Source: Escherichia coli (GTDB taxonomy: Bacteria > Pseudomonadota > Gammaproteobacteria > Enterobacterales > Enterobacteriaceae). From it: a stretch of 64,000 bases of DNA. Of this stretch, positions 38,037-38,191 are shown piece by piece. The notes below the pieces were generated by a model that saw nothing but the letters and a program-made list of their open reading frames with translations, had not been told where the DNA came from and searched no databases. How positions within the stretch are numbered: the stretch's first letter is position 1; the number at the start of each line of letters is the position of its first letter. A program made the position numbers and the translations under genes. Where the stretch lies: the NCBI RefSeq assembly GCF_051903065.1, contig NZ_CP178438.1. One strand, written 5' to 3'.

Positions 38037-38049
38037 AGCAGGAAGCATT

Positions 38050-38078
38050 GCCTGATGCGCTACGCTTATCAGGTCTAC
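38050..38078. repeat. REP palindrome
   Basis: gcctgatgcgctacgcttatcaggtctac just after cobB stop. Confidence 0.65.
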
Positions 38079-38150
38079 AAGCGGACCACAATACCGACGA
38101 AAGAGCGGGATAAAACTTTACTGTCCTGACTCATTAGTCACATCCTTGCT

Positions 38151-38181
38151 AAATAAAAAACGGGCGGTAATACCACCGCCC
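38151..38181 (-). terminator. Rho-independent terminator of potABCD operon
   Basis: On minus strand: cgggcggtggtattaccgcccg hairpin followed by ttttttattt. Confidence 0.8.
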
Positions 38182-38191
38182 GTTTGCTGAA

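Follow-up and report, generated by a model that had tools for sequence, protein, structure and literature searches.

The 155 bp cobB-potD spacer of an Escherichia coli genome as the probable scar of an old deletion of ycfZ-ymfA

In the window, which is the whole stretch of 64,000 nucleotides analysed here, cobB and potD are convergent and their stop codons face one another over exactly 155 bp (38037–38191), the spacing that an earlier note on this DNA had claimed and on which the ORF listing and the NCBIfam models agree. The cobB product is a Sir2-family NAD+-dependent deacylase, with the same annotation in strain ECNB21-M121 (100% identical), and potD encodes a spermidine/putrescine-binding protein. 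Between the two genes lie, in order from cobB to potD, a REP palindrome, a deletion junction, the 5' end of ymfA, and the potABCD terminator (Table 1). The earlier note had described a REP element and the terminator here, and both are present, as a palindrome and as a minus-strand hairpin; the approximately 57 bp of the 5' end of ymfA, at 38090–38147, had been overlooked. An Rfam scan of 37500–38700 at E ≤ 1 matched no RNA family, so there appears to be no sRNA or riboswitch hidden in the gap.

Table 1. Features of the cobB-potD interval, in window coordinates
Feature	Position	Strand	Basis and remarks
cobB	37215..38036	+	ORF listing; NCBIfam Sir2 deacetylase equivalog, 598 bits; 273 aa; stop TAA 38034–38036
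REP-type palindrome, left survivor of the REP pair	38050..38078		1 mismatch to GCCTGATGCGCTACGCTTATCAGGCCTAC
Leftover 19-codon ORF, MSQDSKVLSRSFVGIVVRL and stop	38075..38134	−	ymfA start, junction, and REP sequence; stop TAG in the REP
Deletion junction	38087..38092		Left-flank homology to ~38086; ymfA homology from 38089–38091
ymfA relic, start codon (38134..38132) and codons 1–15	38090..38134	−	14/15 residues as in the L088/P0004 YmfA allele
ymfA ribosome-binding site, AAGGA, retained	38143..38147	−	Read from the sequence; conserved in intact alleles
potABCD intrinsic terminator hairpin (predicted)	38158..38185	−	12-bp stem with 7 G-C pairs, then T-run
potD	38192..39238	−	ORF listing; NCBIfam PotD equivalog, 791 bits; 348 aa

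The palindrome 3' of cobB has the characteristics of a REP, being extragenic, imperfect, about 29 nt long, and represented by copies elsewhere on chromosomes. In many genomes the segment 38046–38079 has further matches elsewhere on the chromosome, such as that at 1,587,201 in K-12. It is presumably of the Z2 type. In the intact alleles of K-12 and A7, the cobB stop is followed by a first REP, a spacer of about 34 nt (…GGGGACGCAATTAATTGAATTTGCGGGTTTTG…), which is taken here to resemble the IHF-binding linker of BIME-1/RIP elements, an inverted second REP, and then the stop of ycfZ. This second REP, seen as an inverted repeat in K-12 and A7, is missing from the window. The arrangement is like that of REP/BIME sequences at convergent gene ends, in that the palindrome lies directly past the cobB stop and is paired with an inverted REP in intact alleles; it differs in that half of the pair is left in the window, where the REP marks one breakpoint and gives no homology account of the deletion. 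At the other end of the gap the terminator stem, read on the minus strand from 38185 to 38158, starts 6 nt past the potD stop, is followed by TTTATTT, and dominates the predicted fold; by alignment it corresponds to the hairpin that lies between potD and ymfA in K-12.

On homology, position, and polarity, the segment between these two elements is a deletion relic, a truncated pseudogene, of ymfA. It was found by tblastn within the 64-kb window (E=5e-4), the rest of which has no further similarity to YcfZ or YmfA by tblastn. Compared with residues 1–15 of YmfA it has 93% identity to L088, 87% to A7, and 73% to K-12, and window 38091–38116 is identical to the L088 ymfA over 26/26 nt. The best-matching allele was found by protein search (P0004, MSQDSNVLSRSFVGIGLV…), its DNA being L088, a public read-set assembly. 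The relic has the orientation of an intact ymfA and the same spacing to the potD terminator as in K-12. Its peptide, MSQDSKVLSRSFVGI, is extended by four codons from the junction, up to a TAG that lies in the REP, and the resulting 19-codon ORF is probably meaningless.

The earlier note had placed two minus-strand membrane-protein genes of about 1.3 kb in all, ycfZ and ymfA, at this position in K-12, and strain MG1655 does carry both: its cobB-potD gap is 1,423 bp and holds ycfZ (789 bp) and ymfA (462 bp), each on the minus strand. A K-12 spacing of 155 bp, which the earlier note had named as the result that would tell against its reading, is therefore not seen, and the alignment of the window with K-12 that it had proposed gives an indel of about 1.3 kb spanning ycfZ-ymfA. 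Compared with A7, in which the gap is 1,442 bp, the window has a net loss of 1,287 bp. YcfZ has a TPM domain (Pfam TPM_phosphatase) and YmfA is a DUF3592 protein, with no other Pfam match to either; both are accessory inner-membrane proteins. An identity as anti-phage defence genes was considered and rejected, there being no match to PADLOC defence models for either protein at E ≤ 0.01 and only the two Pfam matches just given.

There is also a 1-bp indel that alters the C-terminus of CobB (window 38028–38036; L001 2157–2178). The window, O157:H7, and A7 read GGATTATAA at the end of cobB, giving a CobB of 273 aa. Strains K-12, JSMCR1, and A23 have one T fewer (GGATTA-AAA), giving a CobB of 279 aa with six extra residues (KAGSIA) read from the REP.

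The anatomy of the junction can be read directly. On the left the break is 8–13 bp past the retained REP, within the REP-pair spacer; on the right it falls in codon 15–16 of ymfA, in ordinary coding sequence with no REP. There is a CAAT at both parental edges, in the spacer (…GACGCAAT/TAATTG, that is GCAAT/TAATTG, the slash marking the edge) and in the L088 ymfA (ACCAAT/ACCGAC), and a single CAAT in the window (38089–38092). Two to three nucleotides (CCA, 38086–38088) match neither sampled parent, and the CAAT overlap could be due to chance. Since C38087 and A38088 fit neither parent, the crossover can be placed only within 38087–38092; the two nucleotides may be filler or later mutation. Among the alleles sampled, there is no intact one with the exact parental left edge, which would be a REP-pair spacer reading GGACCACAATTAATTG.

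The frequency of the deletion was assessed in 5,426 complete E. coli genomes, in which the window's junction, type 1, was counted by BLAST coverage with a 101-bp probe. The ycfZ-ymfA pair is present in 4,850 of these, near full length in 4,827, while in the other 576 (about one in ten) cobB and potD are contiguous without it. The proposal of an indel polymorphism is thereby borne out both by direct alignment and by the survey. The type-1 junction is found in 560 of the 576 genomes lacking the pair, O157:H7 included, and a second junction, type 2, represented by strain N96, in 14. Among the matches listed, the type-1 carriers are mostly O157:H7 or genomes of O157 size (5.4–5.5 Mb), together with animal isolates.

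Several other lesions are seen at the locus. The type-2 allele (L003 1975–2135, strain N96 and 13 other genomes) keeps both REPs and has the ATG of ymfA fused to the last ~9 codons of ycfZ, creating a mini-ORF, MLLLWTSKR and a stop, by a deletion independent of that in the window. In E69 and L088 only ycfZ is deleted, while Escherichia sp. MOD1-EC7003 has internal deletions in both genes. In strain JSMCR1 (L089 2001–2436), which has a K-12-like background, a separate deletion begins within ycfZ and ends in potD, so that PotD is reduced to a truncated pseudogene. There is a frameshift in ycfZ in Z1323CEC0015, and strain 2017.02.04CC has IS1 insertions at the locus. The pair is evidently dispensable and has been lost repeatedly.

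Outside E. coli, the neighbourhood of cobB was taken from one genome per species and scored by tblastn for NagK, CobB, YcfZ, YmfA, and PotD. Neither YcfZ nor YmfA is present downstream of cobB in approximately 74 non-Escherichia Enterobacteriaceae loci, with zero tblastn matches. In the loci read from Salmonella, Enterobacter, Yokenella, Klebsiella indica, and Atlantibacter, and in most Citrobacter, the stretch from cobB to potD is only 35–110 bp long and has REPs or a hairpin and nothing else, and the outgroup spacers contain nothing like the relic of ymfA or the terminator of Escherichia. Within the genus, ycfZ-ymfA occupies the same site in E. albertii, E. whittamii, and another divergent Escherichia lineage. 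The GC content of the pair is 41–45%, as against 50–55% for its flanks. It therefore has the restricted distribution, atypical GC, and variable presence of an accessory island, but not the marks of a mobile element: there are no mobility genes or convincing flanking direct repeats around ycfZ-ymfA, where the interval consists of ycfZ, ymfA, the REP pair, and the terminator. The pair looks like a two-gene insertion gained at the base of Escherichia, at a convergent junction of cobB and potD that is conserved in other respects. That cobB adjoins potD in the outgroups with no trace of ymfA would suggest that this insertion is confined to Escherichia and was later deleted here.

Identical type-1 junctions are seen on quite different backgrounds. 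The junction string GGACCACAATACCGACGAAAGAGCGGGATAAAAC is the same in the window, in O157:H7 (which is taken to belong to phylogroup E), in strains A23 (from a capybara) and A30 (from a horse), and in Escherichia sp. E1V33, which over 7.5 kb is only ~95% identical to the window. The cobB haplotype of A23 is K-12-like, at 0.7% divergence and with the K-12 stop-codon indel included, while that of A30 matches the intact strain A7 at 0.1%, that of the window comes closest to O157, at 0.9%, and that of E1V33 is 4–5% from all other haplotypes compared. Immediately to the left of the REP, E1V33 has the sequence characteristic of its own clade, and its scar differs from that of the window at ~12/155 positions (~8%). 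If the scar was ever exchanged by E. coli and E1V33, the number of these differences and the clade-typical flank show that this was not recent.

These observations suggest that the 155 bp spacer was left by one old deletion of about 1,287 bp, illegitimate in mechanism and spread later by recombination, a reading to which a probability of about 0.85 is given. The deletion would have removed the second REP of the pair, the whole of ycfZ, and ymfA from codon 16 on. The REP-pair spacer (GCAAT/TAATTG) would have been joined to ymfA (ACCAAT/ACCGAC) with at most 4 nt shared, in a RecA-independent illegitimate recombination, of the slippage or end-joining type, rather than one between REP copies. It would have spared cobB up to and including the stop codon, one of the REPs, the terminator of potABCD, and the translation start of ymfA, and given that these elements are kept the neighbouring operons should be unaffected. 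Later, the null allele may have moved by homologous recombination among E. coli backgrounds, and also into or from a sister Escherichia lineage. What the sequences show directly is how the scar is built, its polarity, how common it is, and that its junction is shared; how it arose, how old it is, and that it leaves its neighbours unaffected are inferred. The likeness to known microhomology-mediated, RecA-independent deletions is in the kilobase-scale loss, the unrelated endpoints sharing no more than 4 nt, and the truncated gene start that is left; the difference is in the 2–3 junction nucleotides that come from neither sampled parent, which make the signature of one remaining repeat copy unclean.

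The earlier note had thought the indel possibly REP-associated, and as a matter of position this stands, the left breakpoint being so close to the kept REP; as a mechanism it does not, the right breakpoint being in ymfA coding sequence with no REP. A deletion by REP-REP recombination, or by an activity that processes REPs (a transposase of the RAYT type, or gyrase/IHF at the REP pair), would account for a left breakpoint in the pair spacer and for the loss of the second REP, and there is a weak similarity of 14 nt, an imperfect direct repeat referred to as D1, between the 3' arm of the REP (TATCAGGCCTACAA) and the 5' region of ymfA (TATCAGACCGATAC). It is conceivable that a REP-bound protein or the REP hairpin started the break, since the left breakpoint is in a spacer that is presumed to be like an IHF linker. 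Simple REP-REP recombination can be rejected, as it needs both breakpoints in REPs and a hybrid REP, while here the REP is intact and the right breakpoint is in ymfA, and there is no REP-like right edge in the parental alleles L088 and A7. Deletion through D1 can likewise be rejected, because the junction does not coincide with it: the junction lies outside the similarity, and the window keeps CTACAAGCGGACCACA between the D1 copies. Nor do the deletions in N96, E69/L088, JSMCR1, and MOD1-EC7003 break at REPs, but inside ycfZ, ymfA, or potD. A REP-mediated origin is on this evidence improbable, and illegitimate recombination at the level of microhomology is favoured, because the right edge has no REP and the D1 repeat misses the junction.

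It might alternatively be supposed that the window retains the original arrangement, with cobB next to potD, and that K-12 and most E. coli gained ycfZ-ymfA, as the direct adjoining of cobB and potD outside Escherichia and the low GC of the pair, as of acquired DNA, would suggest. However, the window has the ribosome-binding site, ATG, and 15 codons of ymfA (14/15 aa and 26/26 nt to L088), as well as the Escherichia-specific terminator, and neither relic nor terminator is in the outgroup spacers, and ycfZ is at the site even in the basal E. albertii. Ancestral absence is thus extremely unlikely, and because the start of ymfA and the terminator are retained this is a deletion in the lineage of the window; the polarity is settled, the window lineage having lost the genes rather than K-12 having gained them. 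That the interval was collapsed by an assembly or sequencing artefact is scarcely credible, when cobB and potD are contiguous in 576 complete genomes from many laboratories, 560 of them with the same junction. The same deletion might also have arisen independently at a hotspot in O157:H7, the window lineage, A23, A30, and E1V33. The flanking haplotypes of the carriers are not monophyletic and the locus is prone to loss, with at least 5 distinct lesions, as recurrence would have it, but all of the carriers share the odd, non-templated-looking nucleotides of the junction (GGACCACAAT) and relics of the same divergent ymfA allele class, which repeated events would not reproduce, and none of the other losses at the locus has this junction. 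No type-1 carrier was seen with a relic from the K-12 class of ymfA allele (…GAAAGAAAAC…). Recurrent identical deletion is accordingly very unlikely. The simplest reading of the sequences would be one old event, after which homologous recombination, with crossovers very near to the scar, took its product from one background to another. A single origin is based on identity of the junction in five sequenced examples and on the BLAST coverage count; that the same junction is on unrelated flanks, and in an Escherichia lineage of ~95% identity, suggests that the scar is old and has been moved by recombination.

The window region 36100–40050, around cobB-potD, diverges by ~1.4–3.3% from K-12 and from O157:H7, while the rne-fab region (1–12000) is 0.7% from both. 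The raised divergence around cobB-potD is consistent with imported DNA.

There are two deeply diverged classes of ymfA allele in E. coli, that of K-12 and that of A7/L088, with 75% amino acid identity and a dS of ~0.8 between them (L001 3083–3544 for K-12, L004 2083–2544, and L088 4001–4462 were compared), where the flanking potD and cobB have a dS of ~0.1. Positive selection as the cause of the 75% YmfA identity was rejected, as a dN/dS of ~0.17 at this dS indicates old divergence under purifying selection. The K-12 class of ymfA is near-identical in E. whittamii (L010) and in a divergent 'E. coli' (L007), with a dS of 0.06–0.07 compared with 0.18–0.25 in the flanks; the ymfA dS being below that of the flanks, exchange of ymfA between species is indicated. 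It could be that the cobB-potD locus is a long-lived balanced polymorphism across Escherichia species, made up of an ancient null allele and two ymfA classes, all of them passed repeatedly from lineage to lineage, with at least 5 further independent losses, although this is speculative and on balance unlikely. If true, it would fit an envelope pair under frequency-dependent selection, for instance one which a phage, bacteriocin, or host factor exploits and the loss of which is an escape.

The polymorphism itself is already known, and the junction anatomy and polarity described here are small additions. The two genes are presumably among the 'K-islands' (K-12-specific and absent from O157:H7) of the O157:H7 genome paper, and the annotation of complete O157:H7 genomes puts cobB directly beside potD. 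As a variable marker on virulence and CGH microarrays of E. coli, b1121 (ycfZ) was present in some groups of strains and absent in others (PMC2749873), and the gene is also listed in sets of virulence genes (PMC3091784, PMC6057003). In a pangenome study the YmfA family was in only 359 E. coli genomes, against 524 for universally conserved families (PMC8788219). The locus described here is like the K-islands and the b1121 array marker in having the same two genes with the same pattern of presence and absence, and differs in the junction anatomy, the ymfA relic, the outgroup polarity, and the multiple deletion alleles. No account of the junction anatomy, the relic, the polarity from outgroups, or several independent deletion alleles was found in the searchable literature, nor was any paper mentioning strain E1V33.

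In itself the deletion has little significance, being an ordinary loss of accessory genes beside cobB and potABCD units that look intact. It does explain the behaviour of ycfZ (b1121) as a variable array marker, and the exact sequence of the junction identifies a common null allele, shared with O157:H7. For annotators there is a caution: neither the 19-codon ORF nor the 'ymfA start' in the gap is more than a relic. The repeated independent loss, the deep ymfA classes, and the exchange across species may merit a population-genetic look at envelope variation in Escherichia.

A phage integrase gene takes the place of potB, 166 bp beyond potC, in two strains, O157:H7 Z866 and Z1323CEC0015 (L006 4097–4101; L005 4582–5586), so that a prophage would appear to have integrated into the pot operon in both. 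The window's own potB (40026–40883) and potA are intact. Downstream of cobB, several Enterobacter, Cedecea, Kosakonia, and Citrobacter genomes have unrelated cargo of 0.5 to >4 kb (L042 5046–6275, L050 4868–8267, and also L074, L015, L031, L039, and L052), one ORF of which encodes 409 aa and begins MYGFIARQPIFNPE. The junction downstream of cobB is a recurrent insertion point across the Enterobacteriaceae.
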